Shown here one piece after another: positions 11,263 to 32,000 of a stretch of DNA of 32,000 nucleotides. The position numbers and the translations under genes were made by a program. Origin of the DNA: Haloquadratum walsbyi C23. Lineage in GTDB: Archaea > Halobacteriota > Halobacteria > Halobacteriales > Haloferacaceae. The notes under the pieces were generated by a model, which ran no database searches, was not told where the DNA came from, and was given only the letters and a program-made list of their open reading frames with translations. The DNA lies in NCBI RefSeq assembly GCF_000237865.1, contig NC_017459.1:1620001-1652000 (forward strand), read 5' to 3'. Position 1 is the stretch's first letter. Each line of letters begins with the position of its first letter.

Positions 11263-11325
11263 CTCACAAGGGTATGATCGAACAAGAGGAATATAGAATA
11301 TCTCACAGTCTTTTTGAATGTAGCA

Positions 11326-14212: not shown

Positions 14213-14402
14213 GTAGTCTGTGGTAAAATGAACGAGAGTGAACAGGAAGATACCAGCACCGACGAATCAAGTGCGATTGAAATGGATTGACGGAGATGCG
14301 AACGCAAAGAGTTGTAGTTAATGCCAATTCCGCCCTCCTTTTGTCGTTGATACTTTTAGAACGAACAGTGGTAACGCTACTTATCGAGATACTGGCTGCG
14401 CC

Positions 14403-14421
14403 CTTCCCGTCGTTCTCAGCC
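14403..14421. repeat. right copy of the 19-nt perfect inverted repeat
   Basis: CTTCCCGTCGTTCTCAGCC is the reverse complement of 833-851. It lies 4 nt from the integrase stop codon (14426-14428). Confidence 0.8.
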
Positions 14422-14425
14422 AATA

Positions 14426-15457: not shown

Positions 15458-15538
15458 GGGAATAATGATTTGGCTCCGGGAGTAGGTACAGGAAGGTGGC
15501 AAAGTTGCGGTTATGGAGCGAACTATGTGAGCGACAGA

Positions 15539-15560: not shown

Positions 15561-15714
15561 GTCGTTCGCTGTGCGGTCGTTGTGCGTTTGTTTTCGCGGA
15601 CGGCGTGGACCCAATTCATTACTTACACTCGATCACAACTACCTTCAGAGAGATTTTACGGCAACATTGTAAATACGCAATACTTTCTGCATACCCTCGC
15701 TGACTCTATGTCAT

Positions 15715-16059
15715 ATGCGACGCTGGCTATTGAAATCAAAGCTCCATCGGGCCCGTGTGACAGGCACCGAGAAGGATTATGAGGGGAGCATCTCCATCGA
15801 CGCGGCGCTTCTCTCGGAGGCCGACATCGCTGTCGGCGAACAGGTGCAAGTAGTCAACGTGACTAACGGTGAACGCTTTGAAACGTACACCATCGAGGGT
15901 GAATCCCGTCAGATGGAGCTCAACGGGGCCGCCGCCAGGCTGGCGGAGACGGGAGACGTAATCATCGTCATCTCCTATGGCCTCTATGTCAAGGACGAAC
16001 AACCAGAGCCCACAGTGCTACTGTTGGACGAGGAAAACCGGATTAGCGAACGAGAGTAA
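15715..16059 (+). CDS. panD: aspartate 1-decarboxylase, pyruvoyl-dependent
   Basis: Close by-eye match to bacterial PanD: SKLHRARVT, DYEGSISID (the Gly-Ser self-cleavage site), VNVTNGERFETY, LNGAAARLAETGDVIIVISY. Confidence 0.9.
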   Translation: MRRWLLKSKLHRARVTGTEKDYEGSISIDAALLSEADIAVGEQVQVVNVTNGERFETYTIEGESRQMELNGAAARLAETGDVIIVISYGLYVKDEQPEPTVLLLDEENRISERE

Positions 16060-16455
16060 TTTACCCGGGTTGCTCGACCGACAGCTATAGTAACCCTCTC
16101 GAAGATTCGCGTTCACCGCGCTGGTGTTTCAAATACTGTTTCAACATCTTTGTGATGGAGTCCCTTTCCTCAAGGAACGAACGAGCAACACGAAGTGAGC
16201 GAGTATGGAGGAGTCGTTGGCTTACCTCCCGGCGAGTGGTATCCGTACCTCCTCGTCGATGTGAATATCGATGTCGATGTCGGCCATCGTCCGTTCCAGT
16301 AGTATTATTGACCAGAATCCAGATGTAGATGCCTGATTTTTAGACACTCCCGGATCATAGAGGCACTATAAGAAAGTTTCGCGGTTCAGACGCATGAGGA
16401 AATTACATGATTCTCAAAGGGACTGTGACTGAGGGTATTTTTTTATTTCGCACAC

Positions 16456-16875
16456 ATGACAAAGAGTATGGATCAGTCCCTCCCCACCTTTAGTAAAAGA
16501 CGATTGGCTGGACTCATCGCCATTCTCTCATTCGGTCTGTCCTCGTTGTTCGCGGTCCTCGGATTGGGCACTATTGTGTCGGTCACATTCATTCTTGGAT
16601 TCTTTATTTTGTTACCATTGATTGGACTACTTGGTGCGGATTTCCCCCTCGTCGAATCAAGCGATGATAAATCCTCGGCAGATGAAACGACACGTGATGA
16701 GGATCCTCTCACCACGCTTCGACAGCGATACGCGAATGGAGAAATTGATGAGGCTGAATTTGAACGGCGGTTAGAATTGATGCTTGAAACTGAGGATGTC
16801 CAACAATCTACAACAAACTCAGACACTGACGATGTCTCTGATCAATTGCGTGAAATTAAGCGTGAGTTGGAGTGA
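16456..16875 (+). CDS. membrane protein with C-terminal SHOCT domain
   Basis: There are two hydrophobic segments. The SHOCT-like segment is LRQRYANGEIDEAEFERRLELML, followed by an acidic tail. Confidence 0.75.
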   Translation: MTKSMDQSLPTFSKRRLAGLIAILSFGLSSLFAVLGLGTIVSVTFILGFFILLPLIGLLGADFPLVESSDDKSSADETTRDEDPLTTLRQRYANGEIDEAEFERRLELMLETEDVQQSTTNSDTDDVSDQLREIKRELE

Positions 16876-16925
16876 GATATTAATTATTTTTAGACTGTAA
16901 ATAAAACATATGTTGTATACTTCAA

Positions 16926-16983
16926 GTGAACTACCCCTGCCTACTCAGCGGCTGACGCCGCTTTCTTGAGGGTGGGGGCTTCT
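16926..16983 (+). repeat. about 57-nt structured intergenic motif, copy 1
   Basis: GTGAAC..CCTACTC-AGCGGC-tgac-GCCGCT-TTCTTGAGGGTGGGGGCTTC. It is homologous to 25096-25152, with a compensatory change in the hairpin stem. Confidence 0.5.
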
Positions 16984-17147
16984 CTTACAGCCCGCTAAGA
17001 AAGTAAAATCGATATGATTAATATTGAATCACATCCAATGACTGTTTTATGATCACTCTGTGATCAGTGCGTCATTTGCTTATCTGTCAGCACCACATCA
17101 TCGTGTCTGCCGACAGAACAATACTACTGCTCACACAGTGTAGGATA

Positions 17148-18062
17148 ATGTCTGGAACCTCTGGAATTCATTCTCGCAATGTAAATGTAATGTGTCCGGT
17201 TGTAACGCCATTCATTAGCGATGATGATGTTGATCACGCTGGATTGCGCTCTGTGATTGAGTTTGTGAGCGACGCTGGAATTGATGGAATCGTCCCATGT
17301 GGTACGACCGGTGAATTCGCGAGTCTCACACCAATGGAATATCGCGCAGTCATTGAGACAGCAGTCGATGTGGCTGGTGAGACAACACCTGTGATTGCTG
17401 GTGTTGCTGCGACAGACATCCCATCCGTGCGGTCAAATATCGAATTTGCCGCTCAAACGGGCGCTGATGCTGCACTCCTCACACCGCCGTATTTTCACAC
17501 AGGACCAGGATCAACAGGTGTACAACAATTTTTTGAGTCTGTTGTTGCAGAGAGTCCCCTTTCGATCATACTGTATAATATCCCCGCATGTACCGGACAG
17601 CAAATCGACCCTGAAACAGTTGCCACACTAGCAGAGACTGATACAGTGATTGGATTGAAAGATTCGAGTGGTGATTTTGATTATCTTCTTGACATACTTT
17701 CGAGAACTGACTCCTCATTTCGCGTTTTTGAGGGATACGACCGGCATTATGTGAGTGGCGTTCATGCCGGAACAGCCGGCGGGATCAATGCACTCTCAAA
17801 TGTGCTTCCAGGGCGATTTTGTACGATTCGAGAGAAGGCGTTCAATGGCGAAACACAGACTGCATTCGAGAGTGAGCAATCAACACTCGCACCGCTGTTC
17901 GACCTTTGTTTAGAGTATGGATTCGCACCAGTCACAAAAGTGGGGCTCACACATCGCGGAGTCATTGATTCGGCAAGTGTGAGAGCACCGCTCGTCGAAC
18001 TGCCGGACGAGGTACACTCACGGGTTACAACTCTTGTTGCAGACGCAATTGTCGATAGCTGA
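17148..18062 (+). CDS. DapA/KDG-aldolase family class I aldolase
   Basis: Motifs are VTPF, GIVPCGTTGEFASLT and ILYNIP, plus the Schiff-base lysine in IGLKDSSGD. The start is chosen at ATG 17148; 17190 is an alternative. Confidence 0.85.
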   Translation: MSGTSGIHSRNVNVMCPVVTPFISDDDVDHAGLRSVIEFVSDAGIDGIVPCGTTGEFASLTPMEYRAVIETAVDVAGETTPVIAGVAATDIPSVRSNIEFAAQTGADAALLTPPYFHTGPGSTGVQQFFESVVAESPLSIILYNIPACTGQQIDPETVATLAETDTVIGLKDSSGDFDYLLDILSRTDSSFRVFEGYDRHYVSGVHAGTAGGINALSNVLPGRFCTIREKAFNGETQTAFESEQSTLAPLFDLCLEYGFAPVTKVGLTHRGVIDSASVRAPLVELPDEVHSRVTTLVADAIVDS

Positions 18063-18129
18063 ACAGACTTGCGTGTGAAGGGTATCATCAATATCAACAT
18101 CGACACCTTGTCATATCTCGCCATCGCAT

Positions 18130-19155
18130 ATGGATAATATGTCTGAGAAAATGCAAGCGGCTGTTGTCTCCGAGCCGGGAGCAGAATTTGATCTTGTTGA
18201 GCGTCCGGTCCCAGAGCCTGACTCGGAGGAAGTTCGTATTGCTGTTGAGGCGTGTGGCATCTGTCACAGTGATGTGTTTGTCAAAGAGGGAACCTATCCG
18301 GGGGTCAAGTACCCACGAGTTCCAGGTCATGAAGTCGCAGGACGGATTGACGCTGTCGGAGCAGATGTGAATATGTGGGAGATTGATGACCGCGTTGGTG
18401 TTGGATGGCATGGTGGTCACTGTTTCGACTGTGATCCATGCCGGCGTGGTGACTTCCAGCAATGTGTTGATGCCAAAGTAACGGGATTGACATATGACGG
18501 AGGATATGCTGAATATACGACTGTTCCCGCCGAGGCAGTGGCTGCGGTCCCTGAGGAATTAAATGCTGTTGAGGCAGCCCCACTACTCTGTGCCGGCGTG
18601 ACGACATATAACGCCCTTAGACATACCGACGCCCGCCCAGGCGATCTTGTTGCTGTACAAGGAATTGGTGGGCTTGGTCACCTTGGTATTCAATATGCGC
18701 ACGCAGCAGGGTTTGAGACGGTCGCACTTTCACGAAGCGCAGACAAAGAGTCACTTGCGAAGGATCTCGGTGCTGATCATTTTATTGATGCAACCGCGGT
18801 TGATCCAGCAGAACGGCTCACTGAACTTGGTGGCGCCTCAGTTATTCTTGCAACTGCTCCTGCGAGTGATGCAATTAGCAGTGTCGTTAGTGGGCTTGGA
18901 GCCGATGGGTCTGTTGTTGTTGTTGGGATTCCAGGTGAACCAATCGAAGCCAGCGGACAGGATCTTGTCGGAGCGCGAAGTAGCGTCGAGGGATGGGCGT
19001 CTGGGGATGCACGCGACTCACAGGATACACTTGAATTCAGTGCTCTTCGCTCGATTACCCCTGAAGTTGAGACATACTCACTCGATGAGGTGACGACAGC
19101 TTACAGTCAGATGATTGAGAATGAAGCACGCTTTCGTGCTGTCATTGAACCCTGA
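18130..19155 (+). CDS. zinc-dependent alcohol dehydrogenase (MDR family)
   Basis: Motifs are GICHSD, GHEVAGRI, the structural zinc site CFDCDPCRRGDFQQC and the Rossmann motif VQGIGGLGH. Confidence 0.9.
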   Translation: MDNMSEKMQAAVVSEPGAEFDLVERPVPEPDSEEVRIAVEACGICHSDVFVKEGTYPGVKYPRVPGHEVAGRIDAVGADVNMWEIDDRVGVGWHGGHCFDCDPCRRGDFQQCVDAKVTGLTYDGGYAEYTTVPAEAVAAVPEELNAVEAAPLLCAGVTTYNALRHTDARPGDLVAVQGIGGLGHLGIQYAHAAGFETVALSRSADKESLAKDLGADHFIDATAVDPAERLTELGGASVILATAPASDAISSVVSGLGADGSVVVVGIPGEPIEASGQDLVGARSSVEGWASGDARDSQDTLEFSALRSITPEVETYSLDEVTTAYSQMIENEARFRAVIEP

Positions 19156-19395
19156 CTGATTATCCAATAGCTGTTATCACGCGTCTCAGGTGGTTGAAGT
19201 AGTTCTGATTCAGATGATTGATCATCGCACCGGAGTGTATCCGGTACTCTTATGGCTGAGTGAACTAGAACGGAGCAAAACAAATAAAAACGCAATATGA
19301 GAGTTCTATGAGGAGAAAGCAGATAGAGCAATCATCTTATTGGGAGTATTTTGCAGTCAACAAAGAGGTTACCATATAATCGCTGAGTAATATAC

Positions 19396-19596
19396 TCAGT
19401 CGGCGCGGCGTTGCTCAACTGCTTGAGTCAGACGCTCTTTATTCACTGGAAGTCGGATTGGCTGTCGAGCACCAAGACGGGATCCAATGGCTGACTCAAG
19501 TCGATCAATTGCCGCTGATACAGCAACACCTGGTAAGTAGAATTCGCGTTCATCTTCGACGGTACGTTTCTGTTTTTCTGAGGTGTTTTGAACCAT
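19396..19596 (-). CDS. small hypothetical protein
   Basis: 66-aa ORF with haloarchaeal-like charged composition in an otherwise empty intergenic region. No motif recognised. Confidence 0.35.
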   Translation of the reverse strand: MVQNTSEKQKRTVEDEREFYLPGVAVSAAIDRLESAIGSRLGARQPIRLPVNKERLTQAVEQRRAD

Positions 19597-19920
19597 CTAT
19601 CTTTAGATAGGTCTTTTCTCCGTATGAGGGTTTGTCAGTACTCATTCATGCTTTTATATACAATATCTATCACGAATGATGAGGGTGAAATACCACGTAA
19701 TTATGATTGATACTATGACTATGGTAATTGCCCGCAAACAGCATGAGATGCATAAAAACGGTGAATCATGTATATTGTATCAACCGTTGATTCTCATCTC
19801 TTTCCAGCAATAATCCAGCAGTTATCTATGAATTATGATATATAATATATTGAATACTATCACACAGGATTGGGTTATATTTTGATTGACTTTTTGCGTG
19901 AAATAAACTATCCAACTAAG

Positions 19921-20349
19921 TTAGATTGAAAGTAACTCGACAAGATTTGATTCGGGATCGCGAAGAAAACAGACTCGTGTTCCCGTATCGGTTGTCTGAG
20001 GAGGACTAACCGTTTCGACATTGCCCGGAAGCGACGCATACATCTCATCAATATCCGAAACGGTAACTCCGATATGCGTTGTTCCAGAAGCATTCAGTTC
20101 GGTCGACGTTTGTTGTGTCTCTGATGGCGTATATGAAACGAGTTCAAGACGACCGTTACCAATATCAAGATGAACGAACTCAGCATGCGCATCTGGAACA
20201 TCAACGGCAGTCGCAAATTCCTCACCATCAACACTGAATCGGGTAAGAACGTCGATATTGAGCGTTTCAGTATAAAAATCGACTATTACCTCAAGCGCGT
20301 CGACAGTAATTCCAATATGATGCAGTTCTGGTGACGGTGTTGATGTCAT
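19921..20349 (-). CDS. VOC/glyoxalase family protein
   Basis: Two VOC half-motifs are present: HHIGITVDALE and HIGVTVSDIDE. The ATG at 20349 is preferred over the TTG at 20370. Confidence 0.85.
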   Translation of the reverse strand: MTSTPSPELHHIGITVDALEVIVDFYTETLNIDVLTRFSVDGEEFATAVDVPDAHAEFVHLDIGNGRLELVSYTPSETQQTSTELNASGTTHIGVTVSDIDEMYASLPGNVETVSPPQTTDTGTRVCFLRDPESNLVELLSI

Positions 20350-20584
20350 CACTGGTCTTAACGAGTGCAATCATAAATATAGTGTTGAATGATCGTTGCA
20401 TTGAATTGAGCGTCTTCAGTATATTATATTTGAGAGGCGGTCGAACTCAAACACCGCTGAGATGTCGTATAACATACACGGGAAATATGTGTGCGTCAAC
20501 ACACTCATATCTATGATTATTGAGTATTAGTTAGTTGTATAAGTGCATAATAACTATAACGTTTCGTTGACATGGGGTGAGTGC

Positions 20585-21250
20585 ATGGCATTCACAGATG
20601 AGATACGCCCCCGAGCAAATGAGATTTGGACAGCAATTGTTGAACATCCGATGGTTGCTGGTATTGGCGATGGGACGCTTCAAGCGGAGCCGTTTAAATA
20701 CTGGGTCCGACAGGATTATCAATATCTCATTGAATACAGCAGACTCTTTGCGCTTGGCGCGGCAAAAGCGCCAACGTTTGACCGCATGAAGACATTTACG
20801 CAGTTACTTACTGCAACACTCACCGAAGAGATGGATCTTCATCGGTCATATGCAGCAGAGTTTGGAATCACTGAGAGTGAACTTGAAACAACATCACTGT
20901 CGCCGACCACACAAGGATACACTGATTTTCTCCTTCGAACTGCGGCACTTGGTTCGTTCACAGACCTCGTTGTAGCATTATTACCCTGTATGTGGGGATT
21001 CAATGATGTAGCCACACAGCTTGCTGCTGACGGACTCCCCGCAGATGAACGATATGCGGCGTGGATTGAGATGTACACTGGCGAGGAGTTTAACGAACTC
21101 ACAGAGTGGTGTCTCACTCTTACTGATGAGATGACCGCTGGAGCAAGTGAGACGGATATTGAGCGGTATCGTCATATATTCGAGACCTCAGCACAGTATG
21201 AATATCGATTCTGGGATGCTGCATGGCGACGTGAGGAGTGGACAATCTAG
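20585..21250 (+). CDS. tenA: TenA/thiaminase II family protein
   Basis: WTAIVEHPMVAGIGDGTLQAEPFKYWVRQDYQYLIEYSRLFA is typical of TenA. The start is at the ATG of MAFTDEIRP. Confidence 0.85.
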   Translation: MAFTDEIRPRANEIWTAIVEHPMVAGIGDGTLQAEPFKYWVRQDYQYLIEYSRLFALGAAKAPTFDRMKTFTQLLTATLTEEMDLHRSYAAEFGITESELETTSLSPTTQGYTDFLLRTAALGSFTDLVVALLPCMWGFNDVATQLAADGLPADERYAAWIEMYTGEEFNELTEWCLTLTDEMTAGASETDIERYRHIFETSAQYEYRFWDAAWRREEWTI

Positions 21251-21338
21251 CAATGTATTTGAGAGACTTATCGAATGGTAATATGAAACTAATGAAGAGA
21301 CAATTGGTGGATATGACGAAATTTGGAGGCTGGATATC

Positions 21339-22910
21339 ATGGTGAGCACAACTCTTGTACTTGGACTCACCGTGATGACGCTTATTGGGTTCACAATTAC
21401 TGGTATGTGGTATAGCCAGGGTCGGGTTACATCAATTGAAGATCTCATTTCCGCACGGAATCAAGCGGGAGCTAATCGGATAACAGCAACACTTGTTGCA
21501 TCAGTTATGGGTGTGTGGATTCTGTTCGCAGCACCGGAAGCAGGAGCAGGGTTTGGTGTCGCAGCAGTTATTGGATATGCCGTTGGCGAGGCTGTACCGA
21601 TGTATGTTTATTCTCGGGTAGGTCCACGAATTCGAGAGTTGATTCCATCAGGACACTCACTCACTGAGTATGCCCGTGCACGCTATGGAACAGCAATGTA
21701 TGCGTTTGTCGTCGGTGTCAGCGGTCTGTATATGTTTGTGTTCGTTGCGGCGGAGTTGACTGGGATTGCAGGGGCACTTGCATTTGTTGCTGATGTTCCA
21801 CAGTGGCAAACAGCAACACTCGTTGGTGGTTTTGTATTACTATATACCGGCTATGGCGGACTTCGGGCAAGTATATTCACTGATACAGTACAGGCAGTTG
21901 TCGTTATCCCATTGTTAGCTGTTGCATTCATAGCAACGGTGTTTGCACTTGGTGGACCAAGTTCAGTTCTCGGAAATATCACAGCCGCTGATCCAGGACT
22001 TCTTGATCCAACAGCCGCAGCAGGGTTCCAGTTCGGGCTTGCACTTGCGTTTGCTATCCTTGGAGCGGAGTTACTTAATCAAACATGGTGGCAACGAATC
22101 TATGCGGGAACAGACAGTGAGAGTATCGCAGTTGCATTCCGCCGAGCGACGGTTCTGAATGGTCTTATTGTCTTTATCGCTGCATTTCTTGGTGTTGTTG
22201 CAGCGGGACATACAGATATCGTGACCAACCCCACAAGTGCAGCATACAATGCTGATGTAGCATTTTTTGTCTTACTCGAGACAGCGGTCCCAGAGTGGGT
22301 GATTCTTGTTGTGGTACTGCTTGCATTGTCACTTGTGATGAGCTCTGTCGATACACTATTTAATGCGCTTTCGAGTCTCATCACCGTTGATCTTGCTCGG
22401 ATATATCCGGGGAGTACTGATCGCCAACTTCGATGGATCGCACGTGGTTTTACACTTTGTATTGCATTTGCGGCTATCTATGTTAGTGTCCGAGCACAGA
22501 GTGTGCTTCGATTGTTTTTCCTTGCAGATCTTCTTGGGACAGCCCTTGCATTCCCACTTGTATATGGGCTCTACAGTGAGCGACTCACTGGCTTTGGTGC
22601 ACTCGCTGGGAGTCTCTCTGGACTTGCGGTTGGACTTGCGTATTTTCCGGACCTTCGTGGCTTTATTACTGCAATCCCGCTTGTCGGTCCAGCACTTCCG
22701 AGTGCTGACCCACTGTATCTCACCGCGTTTGGCGGATCATTTCTCACCTCAATCGGTGTTACAATAGTTATCTCTCGACTCACGACAACACGATTTGATC
22801 TTGATACGCTTAGTGCTGAGATCACACGTCTTGATGAACCAATAGCAGATGGTGGTCGGACGTATTCTGCGGAATCATCCCTATGCCCTGATGGGAACTC
22901 CGATGACTGA
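21339..22910 (+). CDS. sodium:solute symporter family transporter
   Basis: 523 aa with about 13 hydrophobic helices and SSS-like features. Substrate is unknown. Confidence 0.8.
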   Translation: MVSTTLVLGLTVMTLIGFTITGMWYSQGRVTSIEDLISARNQAGANRITATLVASVMGVWILFAAPEAGAGFGVAAVIGYAVGEAVPMYVYSRVGPRIRELIPSGHSLTEYARARYGTAMYAFVVGVSGLYMFVFVAAELTGIAGALAFVADVPQWQTATLVGGFVLLYTGYGGLRASIFTDTVQAVVVIPLLAVAFIATVFALGGPSSVLGNITAADPGLLDPTAAAGFQFGLALAFAILGAELLNQTWWQRIYAGTDSESIAVAFRRATVLNGLIVFIAAFLGVVAAGHTDIVTNPTSAAYNADVAFFVLLETAVPEWVILVVVLLALSLVMSSVDTLFNALSSLITVDLARIYPGSTDRQLRWIARGFTLCIAFAAIYVSVRAQSVLRLFFLADLLGTALAFPLVYGLYSERLTGFGALAGSLSGLAVGLAYFPDLRGFITAIPLVGPALPSADPLYLTAFGGSFLTSIGVTIVISRLTTTRFDLDTLSAEITRLDEPIADGGRTYSAESSLCPDGNSDD

Positions 22911-22929
22911 TTTAACTGAAAAATAAGAC

Positions 22930-23420
22930 TTGACATCTTCCTCCGCGTGAACGCGGAGGGATCCCACGGCACCACACCGTTGCGCTGAGTTGGGAGTCTC
23001 AGGTGCAGGTTCATAGACCGCCAAGCTCACACGCCGTGCGAATCAGTATGAAACCACATAACGGATAGCCTTCTTGGACTGGCAGTACCACATCTTACTT
23101 TCGGTACTCCTATCCTCAGCCGAAAACGCGTTCGTGTGTTGGCTTCCCTAAAGGAGCGGTGGTCGGCACTCGGGTTCACCAAACTCGGAGTTACTTGTAT
23201 TGGTGACGATAGCCCGATGGTTGTTTGTTTCCCACGTGGAGCACACCCTGCTTCCAGTGTGGGCGGACACTCACACTTGAATCGCCACCTTTGAATCGCC
23301 ACCTTTCGGGCACTCGGCTACACTAGGATCAGAGCCAGTGCGCCGACAGTTATATATACGTCATGTTGCGACCGTTCGGAAATCCCCGGTCTGAAGACCG
23401 TGGTATTGCGCCTGTATTAG
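22930..23420 (+). repeat. large hairpin-rich non-coding repeat, copy A (most diverged; first hairpin has no insert)
   Basis: It starts TTGACATCTTCCTCCGCG-TGAA-CGCGGAGG. It shares internal blocks with copies B and C: GGACT..AGTACC..GGTACTCCTATCC and GGAGTTACTT. The 3' boundary is approximate. Confidence 0.6.
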
Positions 23421-23575
23421 CTATAACTGAATAATATTGAGTACGATATGCTAATCATTGTGCTGATGACTTTCATGATTATAAGACTCTATTTCTCACT
23501 CAAATGCGGTTGACCTGGGAGACCACAGAAGGGTTATTGCATATAATCTACAATATTAATCAAGAGAGATATCAT

Positions 23576-24145
23576 ATGAGCACGACACCTGATGACTGGC
23601 AAGCAGCGATAAACGAGAGTCGAACGAACAAAGAACGATATTTTCGTAGTAGCGATCGGTCACCGGTGCCCCCGGAGTTTAGAGGCGAGTCATTTCCTGG
23701 CTTAGCGTATTATTCAATCGATCCAGAGTATCGATTTACCGTTCCACTCACGCGTGATGATGACCCAGAAACTATTACCGTCGAGACAACTGCTGATGGA
23801 GAGCAAACATACCGCCGCGTTGGGACCTTTGATATCACAGTTGAGACGACTCCAGTCTCAATCGCGGCATATGAACCAACGGATGGCAGTGATCGACTAT
23901 GGGTTCCATTCCGCGATGCAACAAGTGGATCCGAAACATACGGTGCAGGACGATATATTGATCTTGAGCCAACAGAAGACCACAATGACGATGGGACATG
24001 GACACTCGATCTGAATCGTGCGTATAATCCAACATGTGCGTACAATCCAGCATATGAGTGCCCGCTTGTCCCTGCGGAAAATTGGCTTGATGTTCCAATT
24101 GAGGTCGGCGAAAAAGACTTTCCTGGAAATTTCCATGATGATTAG
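23576..24145 (+). CDS. DUF1684 family protein
   Basis: ETYGAGRYIDLEP and LDLNRAYNPTCAYNPAYECP are typical of DUF1684. The start is at the ATG of MSTTPDDW. Confidence 0.85.
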   Translation: MSTTPDDWQAAINESRTNKERYFRSSDRSPVPPEFRGESFPGLAYYSIDPEYRFTVPLTRDDDPETITVETTADGEQTYRRVGTFDITVETTPVSIAAYEPTDGSDRLWVPFRDATSGSETYGAGRYIDLEPTEDHNDDGTWTLDLNRAYNPTCAYNPAYECPLVPAENWLDVPIEVGEKDFPGNFHDD

Positions 24146-24383
24146 GAATGGGTAATCGCCACAATCAGCTGTCACTGCTAATAAGTGCCATACGAGAGAT
24201 AAGCTAAAGCTGACATTGACTTTGACTGTGGCAAGCTACCGACAGATATCAAGCGCCTCCATTTCGATATAAAAATATCACATTGAGAAATACGCAGCGT
24301 CTCACTCACACTGTGGGTGTGTGAGGTACATGGCTATTAGACGTCATTAGTATGATACATACTCATTTCATGATCGACATAGA

Positions 24384-24893
24384 TCATTCTGAATGACGAA
24401 TCGTCAAGACAGGTGCATCTGAGAGACGAACGACCTTTTCTGCAACACTTCCAAGGAGATAATGATCAACACCGCGTCGCCCGTGTGTCCCCATCGTAAT
24501 CAAGTCAATATGATGATCATCAGCGTAATCAAGTATTTTCTGATAGACATCAGCACCGACCTGAACCTCCGTTCGGGTCCCAACCTCACCAAGATCGTCT
24601 GCAACATCATCAACAACTGTCTCACCGTACTCAAAGAGTGACCGACGCGTTTCCTCAGGAATCTCCGGTGATCCACGCATTCCTGATTGTTTCCCTGTCG
24701 ATGATTCACCGGTCATCCCGGAGATATTATCTGGCGATAACTCTGCGATCATACCTGATCCAACATGCCCGGGATCGACGATGAACAATACATGCACAGT
24801 TGCATCATGATTGAGTGCAATACTCTCAAGATGATCGAATGCTGCCTCAGCGTTCTCGCTCCCGTCTGTCGGATACAATATTTGACTGTACAT
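24384..24893 (-). CDS. universal stress protein (UspA family)
   Basis: Motifs are ILYPTDGSENA and ITMGTHGRRGVDHYLLGSVAEKVVRLSDAPVLTIR. The start is taken at the internal Met (MYSQ...); its coordinate is derived from the ORF track frame. Confidence 0.85.
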   Translation of the reverse strand: MYSQILYPTDGSENAEAAFDHLESIALNHDATVHVLFIVDPGHVGSGMIAELSPDNISGMTGESSTGKQSGMRGSPEIPEETRRSLFEYGETVVDDVADDLGEVGTRTEVQVGADVYQKILDYADDHHIDLITMGTHGRRGVDHYLLGSVAEKVVRLSDAPVLTIRHSE

Positions 24894-25095
24894 CCAGTAT
24901 AACCATTCAAATAACAATCATATAAAATAATTCATTATTGGCAATAATATATTATTATTTACTTATTTATTTGATGAATCACTTCGGGGGTCATATCAAA
25001 GCCTCGAGGCACTCACCTTGTTTATGCGTAGAATTCATTATATTGTAAACAATTTGTGGTTATAGAAGGTGCATCTAGAATCACATCGGTCTGCA

Positions 25096-25152
25096 GTGAA
25101 CGGCCTCGACCTACTCAGCCGTCAGAGACGGCTTCGGTGAGGACGGGGCTTC
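25096..25152 (+). repeat. about 57-nt structured intergenic motif, copy 2
   Basis: GTGAAC..CCTACTC-AGCCGTC-agag-GACGGCT-TCGGTGAGGACGGGGCTTCC. It aligns with 16926-16983. Confidence 0.5.
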
Positions 25153-25518
25153 CAGCGAAGTTTCCTTCAGGGTCTAATCAGATTCACAAGCAGAGAGAAT
25201 TATTCGTTGTGGGGCGCCCATGGCCCGCTCTAAACTCTCTTTCTCAAGCATTTTGTTTGAGAGGTTGAACATACCTGTCTGAACAGTGGCGAAACGACAA
25301 GAACGGATCGTGTTTCCGTCTGCGCTGCTGGTTTGAATTAGTTCTACGTTAAATAATAACTTATTTGATAGCTTAGATGTTAGTTATTCCAGTCTGCCAG
25401 GTGTATCCCCTCGCTACTCGTTCGTTTCACTCACTTCTTGAGGAGGGGGTCTTGCCCTCAGATTTGGATAATACGCCAACCAGGATGTTTATTGCTCTGA
25501 TAGAACAATATTGCCTAT

Positions 25519-26196
25519 ATGGACAGGCGGAATTATCTTCACGTTATTGCCGGCGCAGGGGCTTTCGCAACAGCTGGATGTCTTGGGTCAACACTGAGCT
25601 TTCGTGATAGTAATCCGAATGTCATTCTCGCCGAACCTGAGCGTGAGTACACAAGCGAAGAGTTGCCATATCCAGCATGGGGGCAGCGTGTTCCAGACGT
25701 AACACTTCCTAGTTCAATCGGGTCTCAGACGGTAACAATCAGAGATATTGAGACACCGTCGATTGTAACATTCTTTTATAGTCACTGTCAGACTGTCTGT
25801 CCAGTGTTAATCCAAACAGTACGTAACATCCAGGCAGACGCAATTGAAAATGACTATGCTGATCAAGTAACGTTCCTTCCGACGACATTCGACCCACAGC
25901 GTGATGACGCCGCACGACTTCGTGAATATAGCAAAACGATGAATATTGCAGTGGATAATGACAATTGGCAGTTCCTCCGCCCAGCATCGCCCGAACGAGC
26001 AAAAGCTGTCGTTGAGGAGGAATTCGGGGTTACCTTCGAGCGAACACATCCAGATGACATGGATATGTACATGTTCGCTCACTCTGCACTCACATATTTA
26101 ATTAATGCTGATGGGTATATTGAGCGTGCCTATCGAACACAGGCGCCAGATATCAGCCAAATGATCACCGACCTCAAACCACTCCGAGAGCAATGA
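25519..26196 (+). CDS. SCO1/SenC copper chaperone, Tat/lipobox signal
   Basis: The N-terminus MDRRNYLHVIAGAGAFATAGC has a twin-arginine motif and a lipobox. The CQTVCP motif and the downstream conserved His are present. Confidence 0.85.
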   Translation: MDRRNYLHVIAGAGAFATAGCLGSTLSFRDSNPNVILAEPEREYTSEELPYPAWGQRVPDVTLPSSIGSQTVTIRDIETPSIVTFFYSHCQTVCPVLIQTVRNIQADAIENDYADQVTFLPTTFDPQRDDAARLREYSKTMNIAVDNDNWQFLRPASPERAKAVVEEEFGVTFERTHPDDMDMYMFAHSALTYLINADGYIERAYRTQAPDISQMITDLKPLREQ

Positions 26197-26798
26197 GGCG
26201 GCGTGCGGTTCTCAAAGCTACTGGTGGGATTGTGCTTACCGGTGGAAGTGTGATGATACTACAGCGTGGAATCCCGACCCTGAATCCAACTGAGACACAA
26301 TCAGGCACCACGAGCGAATCCAGTGAGGCAGTTAATTCGAAGACGACATTTCCGATTCAGCTATCGACATTAGGCGCTGAGGGGTCTACAGAGAGAACAG
26401 TACGGGTTCCAACTGCGGGGATGCCGACAGTGATCGATTTATTCGCAACATGGTGCACACCATGTCAGGCGCAGATGGACGCACTCTCAACAGTCTATAG
26501 CAAATATAACGATCAGGTCGGATTTATTTCGGTCACAAACGAGCGGATTGGTGGAACGCTCACCCGTGCAGATATAAGATCGTGGTGGAATGAGCATGAT
26601 GGAAGGTGGAGTGTTGGTCTTGACCCCAAAAGCAAATTGATGAATATCCTTGGCGCACAGGGACTTCCATATCTTGCTATTACTGATACAACAGGAGAAA
26701 TACGATGGGAAGATACCGGTATGACATCAGCATCGACGCTCCAACGTGAGCTAGATGCTGTCTTATCTGAAAGTGAGGATGAGAACGAGAACGAGTGA
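26193..26798 (+). CDS. TlpA/ResA-like thiol-disulfide oxidoreductase
   Basis: The active site is WCTPCQ and the N-terminus has an RRR signal. It overlaps the SCO1 stop by 4 nt. Confidence 0.85.
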   Translation: MRRRAVLKATGGIVLTGGSVMILQRGIPTLNPTETQSGTTSESSEAVNSKTTFPIQLSTLGAEGSTERTVRVPTAGMPTVIDLFATWCTPCQAQMDALSTVYSKYNDQVGFISVTNERIGGTLTRADIRSWWNEHDGRWSVGLDPKSKLMNILGAQGLPYLAITDTTGEIRWEDTGMTSASTLQRELDAVLSESEDENENE

Positions 26799-26928
26799 GT
26801 ATAATTACAACCCTATCGATACAGCCGTTTTGATGATTCAATCTGTCACAAGCGCATGAGTCCTGTTGTATGTATACATGCATAATGTATCGAACCATCT
26901 GCATGGCTTTTATTCAATTGTGGAGACA

Positions 26929-27627
26929 ATGAGTATATCATTTCTAAGTATAATCGAGCAGATTGCACTCTTTGGATTCAAGACAAAAGTTGTTGGTATA
27001 CTCGCATTTGCCGCAGGTGCCGGGGTTGCAACATTTTTTGCACCCTGTGCATTTCCATTACTGCCGGGCTATATTGGCTATTATTTTAATCAACCCAAGA
27101 CACCATCGGGATTGCTTTCAGGGGTCACAGCCGCGAGTGGGGCAGTTGTGATGCTCGGAGTTGTCGCAGGGCTCACAGCAATCATTGGTCGTCGTCTCAC
27201 CACAATATTACCTCTATTCGAACCGGTTATTGGAGTTGCACTGATTATATTTGGAGTATTGTTATGGGTTGAATGGACGCCAACAACAATTCCACTTACG
27301 CGTCGACCGGACTCATTAGTTGGATTCGGTATCTTTGGTGCAGTCTATGCGGTTGCAGCCGCTGGATGTGTCATTCCCTTATTCCTTGGCGTGGTTACGC
27401 AGGCAGTTTCACTCTCGCCGACAAATGCGGCAGCCGTCCTTTTCACCTATGCTGCCGGGGTTGCACTTCCACTTATTGGCGTGACACTCCTTGCAGAGTC
27501 TGGTCTGACTGCCTGGCAGAGACTCGGGCATTATACAGGGCGGATTGAACAAATAGCAGCAGGTCTCCTTGTCACCGCTGGCGCTGGACAATTATATCTC
27601 TCGATTGTCGTACTTGATGTACTATAA
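26929..27627 (+). CDS. ccdA: CcdA/DsbD-family cytochrome c biogenesis thiol transporter
   Basis: Motifs are FFAPCAFPLLPGYIGYY and AAGCVIPLF, with six or more hydrophobic helices. The start is at the ATG of MSISFL. Confidence 0.85.
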   Translation: MSISFLSIIEQIALFGFKTKVVGILAFAAGAGVATFFAPCAFPLLPGYIGYYFNQPKTPSGLLSGVTAASGAVVMLGVVAGLTAIIGRRLTTILPLFEPVIGVALIIFGVLLWVEWTPTTIPLTRRPDSLVGFGIFGAVYAVAAAGCVIPLFLGVVTQAVSLSPTNAAAVLFTYAAGVALPLIGVTLLAESGLTAWQRLGHYTGRIEQIAAGLLVTAGAGQLYLSIVVLDVL

Positions 27628-27672
27628 CTATTATTAATCTTACATTCGCCACCTAAATGGAGTCCATTGCAA

Positions 27673-28294
27673 TTGACATCCTCCTCCGCGTGTGGTGCTC
27701 CTGAAAGCTTATTGAGGAATTCAATCCAAAATCTTGTCATAGAGTAGCTGCTGATACTATTGTGTAGGACCTGTGATTCGAAATGTTTCACGGAGTACTA
27801 TTAATGCGAAGGAATCCTGAGCGTGAGTGATGGAGATTTCAAGATTGCTATCCCATTAAGCACCCAAACGGTAAGAATCCGTAATGTTGCTTGCGGTCTG
27901 TAGCGGGTGGGACTATTGGGAGTACCAAGTCCCCGGTACTGCTATCCTCGACTCCGTTCGACCCTTCGTGGTTATTTGTGCCCGACGAGGGTTGAGTGGG
28001 CGTCAACGGACTTGGAGTTACTTTGAGTCTGCTTACAACGGTCAGTTCCAGTCAACTCCGGTCGAATCCTGCGAATCCTGTGAGGATTCGTCGGTTATTG
28101 ACTAGTTCGGATTACTGTTTGATCGCTTGTGGCGGGGAGGCCGCCATCGTCGGACGAGGCAGAATCACTCTGTTCTCGCCTGATAGTGATTCGTTCGAAT
28201 AGTTTCGCCGACGGTGTCGAATGACGCGGGTTCAGCGGCTCACATTACCGACACCAATAATCACGGCGATGAAGACTTGCACTAATCATTATGA
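27673..28294 (+). repeat. large hairpin-rich non-coding repeat, copy B
   Basis: The 5' 19-mer TTGACATCCTCCTCCGCGT is identical to copy C. Shared blocks are GGAATCCTGAGCGTGAG and GGCGG..GCCGCCATCGTCGGA. The 3' module 28207-28294 is about 85 percent identical to 30006-30094, and similarity stops at TATGA. Confidence 0.75.
27692..27804. mobile_element. about 113-nt insert in the loop of the first hairpin of copy B
   Basis: It lies between CCTCCGCGT and a degenerate 3' stem half TGCGAAGGA, where copy A has only the loop TGAA. Its sequence differs from the insert in copy C. No second copy in the window. Confidence 0.35.
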
Positions 28295-28369
28295 TTCCCA
28301 TGTCAGATTTTGACTGTCTGCCGATTCAATGTATGGATTAATAATCTCGGGATAGCTGTTGAACGTGAG

Positions 28370-28545
28370 TTGACTCCGAGGTGTCGGATTCATCCTGCGG
28401 CTTAGTGATTTAACAAACTCCTGGGTGAACTAATTCACTAATTCGATTCGAGAGAACCACTCTGACCGATGCATGTCTAGTTAAGCACCCACTTCTTCTG
28501 TGGACTACTAAGCCGCAGGGATTCTCCTCAAATCTGTGTGACTCG
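28370..28545 (+). repeat. truncated 5' portion of the large repeat family (copy D)
   Basis: TTGAC + CCGAGGTGTCGGATTC + ATCCTGCGGC [insert] GCCGCAGGGATTCTCC. This parallels the first hairpin of copy C, but similarity is lost afterwards. Confidence 0.5.
28402..28511 (+). mobile_element. about 110-nt MITE-like element N1, copy a, inside a perfect 8-bp stem
   Basis: TTAGTGATTTAAC...GGACTACTAA is flanked by CCTGCGGC / GCCGCAGG. It is about 90 percent identical by eye to 29402-29512, while the flanks are much less similar. Confidence 0.55.
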
Positions 28546-28673
28546 ATTAAAAGGGTTCATACAAATCATTCCGATGAGCAGGCGAAAAACCTCGCCCCTC
28601 AGGGGGAGAAATGCCAAGTGTTTGAATATCTTGCAACGATGTGCTCTTTACTCCTGGATTATACTATCACCGT

Positions 28674-29309
28674 ATGCGTGGAGGTGTCGTTCTTGCTGGT
28701 GGTCGATCGACACGCTTTGGAAATCGAGACAAAGCAGTCGTGACGCTTGCTGGGACGCCACTGATTAAACGAGTTGTTGATCGAATCGCAGGGGTCGTTG
28801 ATGAAATTGTCATCAATTGTCGTCAGTCACAACGTGATTCGATTACCGCAGCACTAGCTAAGAGTGATGTTGAGTTACAATTCGCAATTGATCAGACTCC
28901 AGATCGCGGTCCAATGGCAGGATTAGCTCGTGGACTTGAGATAACAGATGCAACATATACAATCGCCGTTGGTTGTGATATGCCATTTATTGACCCTGAT
29001 TTTGTTGAATATTTGTTTGAGCGCATTACCGAAGGATACGCTGATGCTGTTGTGCCACGTCTAAATGAATGGTATCAGCCGACGCATGCAGTATACACGA
29101 CGAATCCTATGTATGCTGCATGTCGCCGTGCGCTCGATAATGATGCACGACAGCTTATTGCCCCATTTGAGTATCTCGATGTGCTTACGATATCGAAATC
29201 AACAATCGATACACACACAACACAGCGGACATTCAGAAATGTGAATACGCCTGAAGAACTCTCGATGGCTGCAAGTGAACTCACCACCAATGATGACTCG
29301 ACTAATTAA
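28674..29309 (+). CDS. mobA: molybdenum cofactor guanylyltransferase
   Basis: MRGGVVLAGGRSTRFGNRDKA is the typical LAGGxSxRxG..DK N-terminus. The start is at the internal ATG 28674. Confidence 0.85.
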   Translation: MRGGVVLAGGRSTRFGNRDKAVVTLAGTPLIKRVVDRIAGVVDEIVINCRQSQRDSITAALAKSDVELQFAIDQTPDRGPMAGLARGLEITDATYTIAVGCDMPFIDPDFVEYLFERITEGYADAVVPRLNEWYQPTHAVYTTNPMYAACRRALDNDARQLIAPFEYLDVLTISKSTIDTHTTQRTFRNVNTPEELSMAASELTTNDDSTN

Positions 29310-29383
29310 CGGGGTGACGCTCTCCCTGCGCTGAGCAGTAGTTACTGAATTGGGTTCTTATCGAAGTAGCCGCAATAGCGGGA

Positions 29384-30094
29384 TTGACATCCTCCTCCGC
29401 GTATAGTGATTCAACAAACTTCTGGGTGAACTGATTCACTCATTCGATGCGAGAGAACTATTCTGACTGATGCATGTCTACTCAAGCACCCACTTCTTCT
29501 GTGAACTACTAAACGCGGAGGAATCCTGAGCGTGAGCGTGAATGGTGGAGATTGCAGGTTTGCAGCTCCACCAAACCCCGGTACGGTGAGAATCCATGTG
29601 GGGTTCACGGACTGTGGCGAGTCGAGTGGGACTGCTGGGACTGCTGGGAGTGCCACATCTCAGCCCCCGGTATTCCTATCCCCCCATCGTATTCGGACTC
29701 CCGGAGTTGGTTGTGCCGGAGAATCCGGCAGATTTCGACAGACTCGAAGTTACTTTCTGCGGTGTTTGCAAGCAGTCGGGCACTGCAACTGCATCTGCAT
29801 CGGTTCAGTATATTATATGAACCGACCGTTCACCTGACTGGTTCCGATTCCTGTCTGAGTGCATGGGGCGGACAGGCCGCCATCGTCGGAGTGACCGGAA
29901 TCGCCCTGCCCTGTTCCCAATCTGATTCCTATCTATAGATAGGCTTGCCTGTCAGTTCAAGCTCCGGAGTCCCAAATCTCAGCGTGACTATTGCAGCGGA
30001 GATTTCCTCCGGGGTGTCGAATGACGCGGGTTTAGCGACTCCCATCACCGACAGGAATGATCACGGCGGTAAAGACTTGCACTGATCACTATGA
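29384..30094 (+). repeat. large hairpin-rich non-coding repeat, copy C
   Basis: Same 5' 19-mer and 3' module as copy B. It has an internal tandem duplication, GGGACTGCTGGGACTGCTGGG. Only short, mutually overlapping ORFs occur, in several frames. Confidence 0.75.
29402..29512 (+). mobile_element. about 110-nt MITE-like element N1, copy b, in the loop of the first hairpin of copy C
   Basis: ATAGTGATTCAAC...GAACTACTAA lies between CTCCGCG and CGCGGAG. The internal hairpin GTGAA-ctg-TTCAC is conserved in both copies. Confidence 0.55.
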
Positions 30095-30152
30095 GTGCTA
30101 GCAATCATATTGTCACGCTGACACAGGTATCAACGAGAGGATTTGCGTCCGC

Positions 30153-30380
30153 TTATGACGAATCCAATCTAGGATGATTAATAAATAATGCATCTCCAAC
30201 AACAATACCCCCAGCGAGTGAGGCAACGCCCATCGAGGCTATCTGAGATAATGTAAGTGCAATTGCACACGTAATGTATGTGATACATACGATAAGTGGG
30301 ATTGCAATGAGAAGCTTGTCATAGATTGTCACTGAGAATGAGAATATAAGTGATCCAAATTGAGTGATCGGATCTAGCAT
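30153..30380 (-). CDS. small hydrophobic membrane protein (hypothetical)
   Basis: 75 aa with two clear hydrophobic helices. No recognisable family. Confidence 0.45.
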   Translation of the reverse strand: MLDPITQFGSLIFSFSVTIYDKLLIAIPLIVCITYITCAIALTLSQIASMGVASLAGGIVVGDALFINHPRLDSS

Positions 30381-30480
30381 TGTTTCTGTAATTATATCTC
30401 ATTAGATGAAGCTTCATAAAATCACATCATTCATATCGATTGTACTTGATCAGGTATTCGCACCAATTTTCCTGATACTG

Positions 30481-30548
30481 TTGGCTATAGTCACGCGAAG
30501 GATTTCGGCACCCCGAGGTGTCGGAAATCTCCACGTAGTTATAGCCAA
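30481..30548. repeat. 68-nt imperfect palindrome related to motifs in the large repeats
   Basis: TTGGCTATAGTCACGCGAAGGATTTCGGCACC / CCGAGGTGTCGGAAATCTCCACGTAGTTATAGCCAA. The half-site CCGAGGTGTCGGA also occurs at 28376-28388. Confidence 0.65.
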
Positions 30549-30681
30549 TAGTATGAAGGTATGATAAAATAAGTATGACATATTTGATTCATACATCTAG
30601 AGGCAGCCTCTCTTTTATATATAACGTGGCGAGCTGATGAGTGTCGCATCTCTTTTGAATACTCATTACACAGTACCATTG

Positions 30682-31002
30682 ATGACAGAGATTGATTCGG
30701 ATGCGCTCTTACCGAATGAACACGTAAAGAACGCTGTTCGTAATGAAGATATTACCCAACTGAGTCGCGGGGCGACAAATAAATATGCCTCAGAGGGTGA
30801 CACGTTTTCTATCGATGAGGATGTATTCGTTATATCGAGTGTTGATGAACGGACACTTGGTGATTTAACAGATTTAGACGCTCAACGGGAAGGATCAGAG
30901 TCACTGACAGCATATCGAGAACGGATGCAGCGTGTTCATACTGATGATTTTGAGTGGGATCCAACAAATAAAATTCTTACATATCAATTTGAGTCTGCCT
31001 AG
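30682..31002 (+). CDS. ASCH-domain-like small protein
   Basis: The pattern GDTF.I....F.I..V...TLGDLT..DA..EG..SL..YRE is reminiscent of ASCH/PUA-like proteins. The start is at the internal MTEIDSD. The family call is tentative. Confidence 0.5.
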   Translation: MTEIDSDALLPNEHVKNAVRNEDITQLSRGATNKYASEGDTFSIDEDVFVISSVDERTLGDLTDLDAQREGSESLTAYRERMQRVHTDDFEWDPTNKILTYQFESA

Positions 31003-31038
31003 ACGTCTCAGATATCGAGTCGAATTACTTTTTCATAC

Positions 31039-31758
31039 TCATCCAAGCGTCTGACACCGCTCGATGAGTGAGCAATCATCAATAATAACACCGTCGACTG
31101 CTGTGGAGTGATCATCTCCACTAATCCTGGCTAACGCAGTCAGCGTTTCAGCGTCCTCAACAGTCCATGCGTTAACATACAGTCCTTGTTCATGAGCTGC
31201 GCTGACAATGTCGGTTTCGATACAAAGTGATGCTGAGGGATGAACTGCTGTACATCCGATTTTGATGGCACGCATGAGTGCATCCTGTGGGTCTGTTGCA
31301 AATAGTAATGCAACGTCTGTGAGACCCGCTGAGACAGCTGCAGTTAGTGCAGTCGGGGCAAATGATGAGACAATAACATCATGGTCAAACTGGTTAATAT
31401 ACATCACAACATCATCAATAACAGATGGCTCTTTCAGTTCAATGTGCAATGTAACGTCTGTAGATACTGTCTGAAAGACCTCCTGTAATGTTGGCACATG
31501 TGCAGTCGAACCCGCAACATGCACTTGTTGTAGTTCGGACACCGAGGTATCTGAAACAAGCCCATCAACATCGGTGACACGATCAAGTCTGTTATCATGT
31601 ATTACGACAGATTCGCCTGTTCCACAGCGACGGACATCAAATTCAACCGCACCGGCGCTGCTTCCAGCGTTTTGAAGCGCCCTGAGTGTGTTCTCTGGAT
31701 ATTGGTGTGGACAGCCGCGATGAGCGATTGGTTGCACGTGATTTGTGCTTGCCATCAT
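31039..31758 (-). CDS. glycerophosphodiester phosphodiesterase (GDPD family)
   Basis: Motifs are IAHRGCPHQYPENTL and VEFDVRRCGTGESVVIHD, with the conserved HIELK region. Confidence 0.9.
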   Translation of the reverse strand: MMASTNHVQPIAHRGCPHQYPENTLRALQNAGSSAGAVEFDVRRCGTGESVVIHDNRLDRVTDVDGLVSDTSVSELQQVHVAGSTAHVPTLQEVFQTVSTDVTLHIELKEPSVIDDVVMYINQFDHDVIVSSFAPTALTAAVSAGLTDVALLFATDPQDALMRAIKIGCTAVHPSASLCIETDIVSAAHEQGLYVNAWTVEDAETLTALARISGDDHSTAVDGVIIDDCSLIERCQTLG

Positions 31759-32000
31759 ATATCATAATACCATCGCAACGTGAACGGCGACTTCTCCCGT
31801 CAGCTCGGCATCTCCGGCAACAGCTTACACAGGATATGTGATAATTATGAATGAGAGAATATGTCTGTCTTCAAAGAGCTACCATCCGATTGGCATCCGA
31901 TCTCGCCAGCATCGACCAGCAGGCGCGTTTGGTTTGAATCGTGCTAACCATGCTGGGGTATCTGCTCCCTCAGTTGGTGTCCGTGGTGCACCGGGTGTTG

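Follow-up and report, generated by a model that had tools for sequence, protein, structure and literature searches.

A 32,000-nucleotide (nt) stretch of the Haloquadratum walsbyi C23 genome (NC_017459.1, positions 1,620,001 to 1,652,000; hereafter called the window and numbered from its first letter) harbors three minus-strand palindrome-associated transposable elements (PATEs), which we refer to as hosts A, B, and C (Table 1). Two copies of a short foldback sequence, N1, are also found here, each placed between the two arms of a hairpin: one in host C (site 2) and the other in a hairpin (site 1) that, to judge from its sequence, is probably the left end (LE) of host B. N1 is a discrete unit with fixed ends and a fixed length that occurs at many unrelated places as a simple insertion, without duplication or deletion, in either orientation and at the dyad center of a palindrome that was already present. 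Most of its targets are hairpins close to the termini of IS200/IS605-type transposons or of PATEs derived from them. Very probably, N1 belongs to the SMR-A class of small mobile repeats, as a 108-nt foldback DNA element that is non-autonomous and inserts at the apical loops of palindromes.

Table 1. Window coordinates of N1, the related inserts, and the elements and hairpins that host them
Feature	Coordinates	Strand	Description
N1 copy 1	28403..28510	+	108-nt foldback small mobile repeat, SMR-A type, TAGTGATTTAAC…GTGGACTACTA
N1 copy 2	29404..29511	+	108 nt, TAGTGATTCAAC…GTGAACTACTA
Site 1 left arm	28394-28401	+	CCTGCGGC; hairpin divided by N1 copy 1; T28402 is a loop residue
Site 1 right arm	28512-28519	+	GCCGCAGG; pairs with CCTGCGGC; A28511 is a loop residue
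Site 2 left arm	29394-29401	+	CCTCCGCG; 3' (right-end, RE) near-terminal palindrome of PATE host C; loop residues TA at 29402-29403
Site 2 right arm	29514-29521	+	CGCGGAGG; same RE palindrome; loop residues AA at 29512-29513
Host A	22930..23421	-	Uninterrupted HqIRS56-type PATE; target TATAA (reverse complement of TTATA) at 23422-23426
Empty RE hairpin of host A	22940..22959	+	CCTCCGCG-TGAA-CGCGGAGG; TGAA at 22948-22951
Host B	27673..28546	-	PATE of the same group as host C; N2 in RE hairpin, N3 internal, N1 copy 1 in LE-type hairpin
Host C	29384..30094	-	HqIRS56-type PATE, IS200/IS605-derived, non-coding; far (LE) boundary uncertain
Internal hairpin of host C	29803..29824	+	GGTTCA-GTATATTATA-TGAACC; empty in the window
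N2	27693..27800	+	108-nt foldback unrelated in sequence to N1, TGGTGCTCCTGAAA…TTTCACGGAGTACTA; in RE hairpin loop (TG^…AA) of host B
N3	28184-28291 (partial copy 30013-30091)		Third 108-nt foldback of unrelated sequence, TAGTGATTCGT…CTAATCATTA

The hosts were recognized as IS200/IS605-derived PATEs of the minus strand because their termini match the published ends of HqIRS56. More specifically, what appears to be the 5' end of the hosts, TTGACATCCTCCTCCGCG…CGCGGAGGAATCC, corresponds in reverse complement to the HqIRS56 3' end as published, …GGGATTCCTCCGCGTGAACCCGGAGGAGGATGTCAA. On its opposite side, host A terminates in …GACCGTGGTATTGCGCCTG…|TATAA, which matches the HqIRS56 5' end and its TTATA target, again in reverse complement. 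The RE terminus of host C is …GGATGTCAA, which reads TTGACATCC on the plus strand. N1 copy 2 and N2, the insert of another family carried by host B, both occupy the 3' near-terminal palindrome. At site 1, the hairpin GGATTCATCC-TGCGGC…GCCGCA-GGGATTCTCCTC resembles the reverse complement of a 5' (LE) near-terminal palindrome of the HqIRS54/ISHwa24 type (by comparison with Table S9 of PMC3119063 and with the HqIRS54 copy of strain HBSQ001), and an LE-like tail, GGGATTCTCCTCAAATCTGTGTGACTCGA, extends 3' of the right arm to about 28546, where it is followed by TTAA, a boundary drawn by analogy. Host B would measure ~550 bp once its three inserts are subtracted, an estimate that includes the inferred extent to 28546.

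The right-end region of host A (22917-23028, minus strand) gave a sub-threshold match to the HgcC family of Rfam (RF00062) over the full model length (35.6 bits, E = 1.6e-6; gathering score, 50). Its RE palindrome aligns with the 3'-terminal stem-loop of HgcC, the last in the model, followed by AAGATGTCAA and flank. Hosts B and C, into which N2 and N1 have inserted, gave no HgcC match at a relaxed Rfam threshold. RNAs of the HgcC type overlap with IS1341/TnpB elements, and we take them to be what is now termed omega or right-end RNA.

A repeat search of the window returned the N1 pair as a 109-nt direct repeat (28403-28511 and 29404-29512) with 90% identity, which is far above the chance expectation for 32 kb and compares with ~77% identity between host copies B and C. 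This bears out two observations of the initial annotation, made from the sequence alone, that a ~110-nt sequence is shared by the two loci at about 90% identity and that it is more conserved than its hosts; the perfect stem halves it described on either side of each copy are those listed in Table 1. Using 26 further copies and the comparison of filled with empty loops, we could narrow the exact unit to 108 nt. This length was found in all 26 copies and leaves no room for a transposase coding sequence. Indels are absent among 27 distinct N1 sequences despite pairwise identities of 83-99%. The terminal inverted repeat, which proved longer than originally noted, is imperfect, with 16 of 25 positions complementary (TAGTGATTCA…GGGTG versus CACCC…TGAACTACTA). 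The ends are constant (TAGTG…CTACTA), and TA stands at both extremes of every copy. An internal hairpin, GTGAA-nnnn-TTCAC, also pointed out at the outset, is present in all copies collected, a conservation that is partly forced because the motif formed part of the search pattern used to collect them. In single-strand DNA folding, the N1 ends are predicted to pair with each other, and the host arm and the N1 repeat to form one continuous long helix (z of about -3 to -4). Scanning the window against Rfam gave no match at all at the gathering threshold and, at a relaxed E-value, the HgcC-like match of host A only; no family was revealed inside N1.

We surveyed N1 in 0.78 Mb of Haloquadratum DNA, comprising a single scan of a genome collection, another of a metagenome collection, and strain variants of the locus (L-numbers designate survey loci or contigs; L011 is H. 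walsbyi J07HQW1 and L017 is HBSQ001). The genome collection contributed 3 copies, found in J07HQW1 and Haloquadratum sp. LUM.47, and none from C23 or HBSQ001. Collectively, 95 BLAST matches fell into 32 distinct flank contexts, and in 19 of these (59%) N1 is bordered by perfect inverted flanks of 7-14 bp, compared with 0.5% of 5000 random positions. The insertion point is centered on the dyad: the numbers of unpaired residues to the left and right differ by no more than 1 nt in all 19 palindromic contexts and are equal in 13 of them, with 0 to 6 unpaired residues per side between the host stem and the N1 stem. The nucleotides that flank N1 are not conserved (T, TA, CG, GA, CC, TG, among others). 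A generic scan for 70-330-nt inserts between inverted 8-mers was too noisy to be of use, with 20 of its loci spanning the same region; when distinct contexts were counted, N1 alone stood out.

Comparison with uninterrupted hairpins shows what the insertion does to its target. The loops split by N1 read TG^AA, TT^CA, TA^AA, TT^TA, and AA^AA (the caret marks the insert), and deletion of the 108 nt rebuilds the loops TGAA, TTCA, and TAAA exactly as they occur in empty copies. At site 2, the split loop TA^AA equals the TAAA loop of empty paralogues, and the TGAA-closed hairpin of host A, which the initial annotation took for an empty site, is indeed one. Because removal of N1 regenerates the empty loops, no target is duplicated and the terminal TA residues belong to N1; the duplication of TA or TTAA that had been suggested for examination is therefore not found. 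A further case lies outside the PATEs. Inside an IS630-type (ISHwa7-like) element of J07HQW1 (L011, 5953-6060), N1 occupies the center of a perfect 12-bp palindrome, and a paralogue without N1 (L068, about 1094-1120) has the same palindrome with three mismatches, …AACCGATCTTCG-GAT-CAAGGATCGGCT…. The alignment of the two is gapless across the junction and contains no duplicated base, as in a simple insertion at GA^T. Since the uninterrupted paralogue already has the palindrome, the target must have existed before N1 arrived; the possibility that N1 creates its own flanking palindrome upon insertion was rejected for this reason.

N1 was located in LE, RE, and internal hairpins as well as in palindromes outside PATEs, some of them in or beside DDE transposase genes (DDE_3 [IS630/ISHwa7-like], DDE_Tnp_1, and DDE_5), and these non-PATE palindromes include ones of 10-13 bp. 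Relative to the right end of the PATE, its two orientations are about equally frequent (about 5 versus 5). In addition, the internal hairpin of host C is polymorphic at orthologous positions, being filled by N1 in L007 and L023 and empty in the window and several strains. The initial annotation had proposed a small mobile element that targets hairpin loops and had recommended a comparison of filled with empty hairpins between strains. The present data, with at least 19 palindromic contexts, some of them outside the host family, empty paralogues, one polymorphic site, and both orientations, speak for that proposal. N1 is neither confined to the host repeat family nor diverging along with it, and empty hairpins do exist, with TGAA, TAAA, and TTCA loops.

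N1 is not the only insert of its kind. N2, whose sequence is unrelated, measures 108 nt in 6 of 8 contexts and 107 nt in the other 2, and its further copies lie at the loop centers TG^AA and CTT^CAG, as N1 does. The third family, N3, which may correspond to HqIRS55, is 108 nt long in 7 of 7 contexts. All three begin with TAGTG (TGGTG in some N2 copies) and finish with YACTA. In L007, an inverted N3 is found at another position of host C, at which the window (about 29856-29860) is empty. Larger MITE-like elements (MITE, miniature inverted-repeat transposable element) also occupy such hairpin loops, because an HBSQ001-specific HqIRS54 (L017, 19234-19868; HBSQ001 1604478-1605112) carries, within its LE hairpin (CCCCGC…GCGGG), an interrupting element of ~255 nt whose inverted repeats read CTGTCTTTTACCCA…. 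Outside Haloquadratum, the right-end hairpin of ISNph12 from Natronomonas pharaonis has a 54-nt loop insertion relative to HqIRS46 (Table S9 of PMC3119063), which suggests that loop-tip insertions in IS605-type hairpins may occur there as well. A separate observation concerns L010 (about 17137-17243), where an N2 copy connects an RE arm with an LE arm, an arrangement suggestive of the SMR-mediated loss of a PATE core.

Several points have to be set against the reading of N1 as a mobile element of the SMR-A class that enters apical loops. The flanks are not always palindromic, as the initial annotation had asked: 19 of the 32 contexts are, and the other 13 mostly combine one known hairpin arm with the far arm of another N1 site. 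We take most of these for recombinants between N1 copies or metagenome assembly chimeras, and the context counts are weakened by them. N3 shares the termini of N1 but lies between direct repeats of 3 nt (TGA…TGA or, at other sites, TCA…TCA) and lacks a palindrome, so the three families may not share one mechanism. The autonomous element sharing the N1 termini, which the initial annotation had suggested looking for, did not emerge: a search of the 0.78 Mb for TAGTG…CACTA ends spaced 0.3-5 kb apart gave N3 pairs only. No match to N1 or N2 was found in a plasmid collection, scans of viral contigs with N1 and N2 patterns gave none, and assembled contigs contained neither an excised joint nor tandem copies (CTACTA…TAGTG). 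Finally, the assignment of N1, very likely an SMR-A-type insert, draws on the published description of the class and of its families HqIRS42, HqIRS43, and HqIRS55.

Two further observations concern junctions at N1. A hybrid N1 in L019 (about 6372-6479) has the left flank of site 1 on one side and, on the other, a right flank whose start is like that of site 2, and no mobA was called on this contig. In L001, L003, and L010, downstream of locus position about 10840, and in L019, the synteny of the metagenome contigs stops exactly at an N1 copy; such breaks reflect either genuine recombination between copies of N1 or chimeric assembly at the repeat.

How might such an element move? An enzyme encoded elsewhere would act on N1 in trans by reading the shared termini, and the target would be recognized by its structure, as the apical loop of a hairpin or the tip of a cruciform, and not by its sequence. 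The likeliest substrate would be single-stranded DNA, as in IS200/IS605 transposition, in which the hairpins of those elements act. The joined ends of an excised N1, …GAACTACTA|TAGTGATTC… (…CTACTA|TAGTG…), would themselves be palindromic with the joint central in a TA|TA loop. Donor and target may thus be equivalent hairpin tips, each exchanged at the center of a loop of roughly 4 nt, and a symmetric exchange of this type would explain both the absent duplication and the absent orientation bias. We offer this model tentatively, as it is a matter of inference. A canonical IS200-type TnpA is a candidate enzyme by association only, and a doubtful one, because N1 has no GC-rich subterminal hairpins, guide features, or conserved target oligonucleotide, and also because it enters palindromes that TnpA should not bind. 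A bolder version, to which we attach rather little weight, postulates a sequence-independent hairpin-tip exchange, so far undescribed, whose machinery reads only TAGTG…YACTA and the fixed length of 108 nt and which also remodels the guide RNAs of TnpB-type elements. Remodeling would follow from the preference for hairpins that form the 3'-terminal stem-loops of HgcC/omega-RNA-like transcripts.

The initial annotation had named a structured RNA as the alternative, and in that case N1 would be immobile, a variable extension at the apex of the terminal stem-loop in an HgcC/omega-RNA-like RNA at the PATE right end, and would co-evolve with its host. The host hairpin does correspond to the HgcC 3'-terminal stem-loop, albeit with a score below the gathering value; the N1 repeat continues the host stem, and the expansion in ISNph12 lies in the same loop. 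An origin of this sort is nevertheless already contradicted by the same 108-nt sequence in LE, RE, and internal hairpins and in the palindromes of DDE genes, by both orientations, by the stronger conservation of N1 than of its host, and by the presence/absence polymorphism between strains, which together make it most improbable. Archaeal introns also lie between two paired exon-like arms, and N1 could in principle be a bulge-helix-bulge intron spliced from PATE transcripts. The junctions, with their unpaired residues symmetric within 1 nt, do not have the geometry of a 3-nt bulge, a 4-bp helix, and a 3-nt bulge, and no Rfam family was found in N1; on the junction geometry we rejected this candidate, whose chances are close to nil. 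Hardly better placed is an ordinary MITE mobilized by an IS630/Tc1-like DDE transposase that duplicates TA and prefers AT-rich or bent loop DNA. It would account for the TA at the start and end of every N1 copy, IS630-type (ISHwa7-like) transposases are present in these genomes, and N3, which shares the termini, has its 3-nt direct repeats. TA duplication, however, predicts empty loops of 6 nt (e.g., TGTAAA), which are unseen among empty copies, whereas removal of N1 restores TGAA, TTCA, and TAAA. Since the split loops equal the empty ones, the TA-duplication model was rejected, in line with the colinear L011/L068 pair and with the absence of target duplication reported in 2011 (PMC3119063).

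The remaining alternatives accept that N1 is mobile and differ in why it is found at loop tips. Insertion might be untargeted, with only those copies surviving that leave the host functional, and N1 would then spread by hitchhiking with the PATE. An insert disturbs a DNA hairpin or an RNA stem least at the loop tip, and several N1 copies do occupy one and the same loop in related HqIRS56-type PATEs that lie at separate loci. Those copies, however, differ by ~10% and lie in both orientations, which points to independent insertions; moreover, survival gives no reason for N1 to be centered in the 10-13-bp palindromes of DDE genes, and filtering alone does not account for palindromic flanks at 59% versus 0.5%. 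We regard a survival filter as quite unlikely. Only a little more credit is due to a defense role of SMR-A, as proposed by the authors of the 2011 study, who recorded that 104 of 192 nested-element events in two genomes are SMR-A in a PATE or IS605-type element and that most tnpA and tnpB genes of these genomes are disrupted (PMC3119063). Insertion at the tip keeps both stem arms and lengthens the hairpin, so that it is not evident how the host would be inactivated; the targets extend to palindromes generally, those of DDE elements included, and their enrichment can follow the distribution of palindromes; and no host gene has been linked to SMR-A. Because strong palindromes are found here mostly in mobile elements, the "attack" on PATEs may be a by-product of structure targeting and not defense.

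With regard to the wider window, positions 15669-32000 are 98.6% identical to the syntenic locus of HBSQ001 (AM180088, L017), which was reached through a look-up of the Usp protein encoded in the window; exact look-ups of two further window proteins, of 75 and 189 aa, had no record. The two N1 copies and N2 occupy corresponding positions in HBSQ001. Three landmarks of Table S5 of PMC3119063 agree with the window once its positions are raised by 1,620,000, namely a 130-bp block at C23 1635539-1635668, an adjoining HqIRS54 insertion found only in HBSQ001, and an HqIRS41 found only in C23, so that the window is placed at 1,620,001-1,652,000 of C23. By the coordinates of the same table, window positions 1-15538 are part of DV7, a 19.7-kb C23-specific insertion at a tRNA gene, and within them lie two diverged tandem gene copies (9824-11230 and 11327-12733; 77-82% identical). 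An 84-bp insert relative to HBSQ001 (30471-30554), with inverted repeats ACTGTTGGCTATAGTCACG / CGTAGTTATAGCCAATAGT, is listed there as HqIRS41 (C23 1650471-1650554). Just upstream of mobA, at 28575-28625, a fragment, TGAGCAGGCGAAAAACCTCGCCCCTCAGGGGGAG, resembles the 5' end and hairpin of an HqIRS56-type PATE in forward orientation and may be a terminal-only PATE remnant.

Of interest is how a 108-nt element that has no transposase, target duplication, or sequence target enters hairpin tips. Any mechanism has to accommodate insertion at the exact dyad center of pre-existing, unrelated palindromes, both orientations, and the common length and terminal pentamers of three unrelated families. Given that these hairpins are now understood as part of the RNA scaffold region of TnpB-type elements, SMR-A may also bear on whether guide RNAs tolerate apical insertions or are disabled by them.

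Several known systems share features with N1. The IS3-family elements IS1397 and ISKpn1 insert into the loop of REP (repetitive extragenic palindromic) units, and members of the IS1111/IS110 group target REP or attC palindromes. These elements are palindrome-directed, as N1 is, and IS1397 enters the central loop. Unlike N1, they carry transposase genes and are autonomous, each recognizes a single palindrome family by its sequence, and the target duplications of IS1397 are short. Classical MITEs are likewise short, non-coding, bounded by terminal inverted repeats, and moved in trans; however, they share their repeats with a resident insertion sequence and generate target duplications of fixed length, whereas N1 makes no duplication and shares its ends with no longer element in the 0.78 Mb surveyed. 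The IS200/IS605 elements and PATEs resemble N1 in their lack of target duplication, their dependence on DNA hairpins, and a likely single-strand chemistry. IS200/IS605 elements nevertheless have no terminal inverted repeats and insert strand-specifically 3' of a fixed 4-5-nt target, whereas N1 carries inverted repeats and shows neither a sequence target nor an orientation bias, and thus does not qualify as an IS200/IS605-derived PATE itself. A further parallel is with the bacterial REPINs, which are linked to REP-associated tyrosine transposases (RAYTs; Bertels and Rainey, 2011, PMC3116915): these are foldback sequences of ~100 nt with two inverted arms, multicopy, non-autonomous, and free of target duplication, and their movement is presumed to involve single-stranded hairpins and an IS200-like enzyme. 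Unlike N1, REPINs are tied to a single-copy RAYT gene flanked by REPs and are not known from the hairpin loop tips of other elements; for N1 no partner resembling a RAYT was identified, although no genome-wide search aimed at one was made.

The best fit is to SMR-A, described for H. walsbyi by Dyall-Smith et al. (2011; PMC3119063) as three families (HqIRS42, HqIRS43, and HqIRS55) of about 110 bp with prominent inverted terminal repeats and up to 54 copies per genome. Target duplication is absent from SMR-A, as judged also from strain-specific insertions, and the families have in common a strong preference for the near-terminal palindromes of PATEs and IS605-type transposons; the same site is at times filled by SMR-A in opposite orientations in the two strains, and the mode of mobilization was termed "enigmatic" (PMC3119063). 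We found no later paper on the SMR-A mechanism. N1 agrees with this description in its length, its terminal inverted repeats, the lack of target duplication, and its insertion in the near-terminal palindromes of PATEs (HqIRS56/HqIRS54 termini, Table S9). As to the family, N1 (16/25, invariant 108 nt) falls between the published statistics of HqIRS42 (15/25, 103-112 bp) and HqIRS43 (16/23, 107-109 bp) (PMC3119063), so that a name based on the repeats would be ambiguous. SMR-A and N1 come from the same organism and strain, are non-coding, and occur in either orientation at one site, and nothing contradicts membership. The phenomenon has therefore already been published for H. walsbyi C23, and our analysis amounts to a rediscovery. 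Beyond the earlier description, the N1 survey adds the exact insertion at the dyad center, the use of palindromes outside PATEs, and the finding that three families share the length of 108 nt and the termini TAGTG…YACTA.

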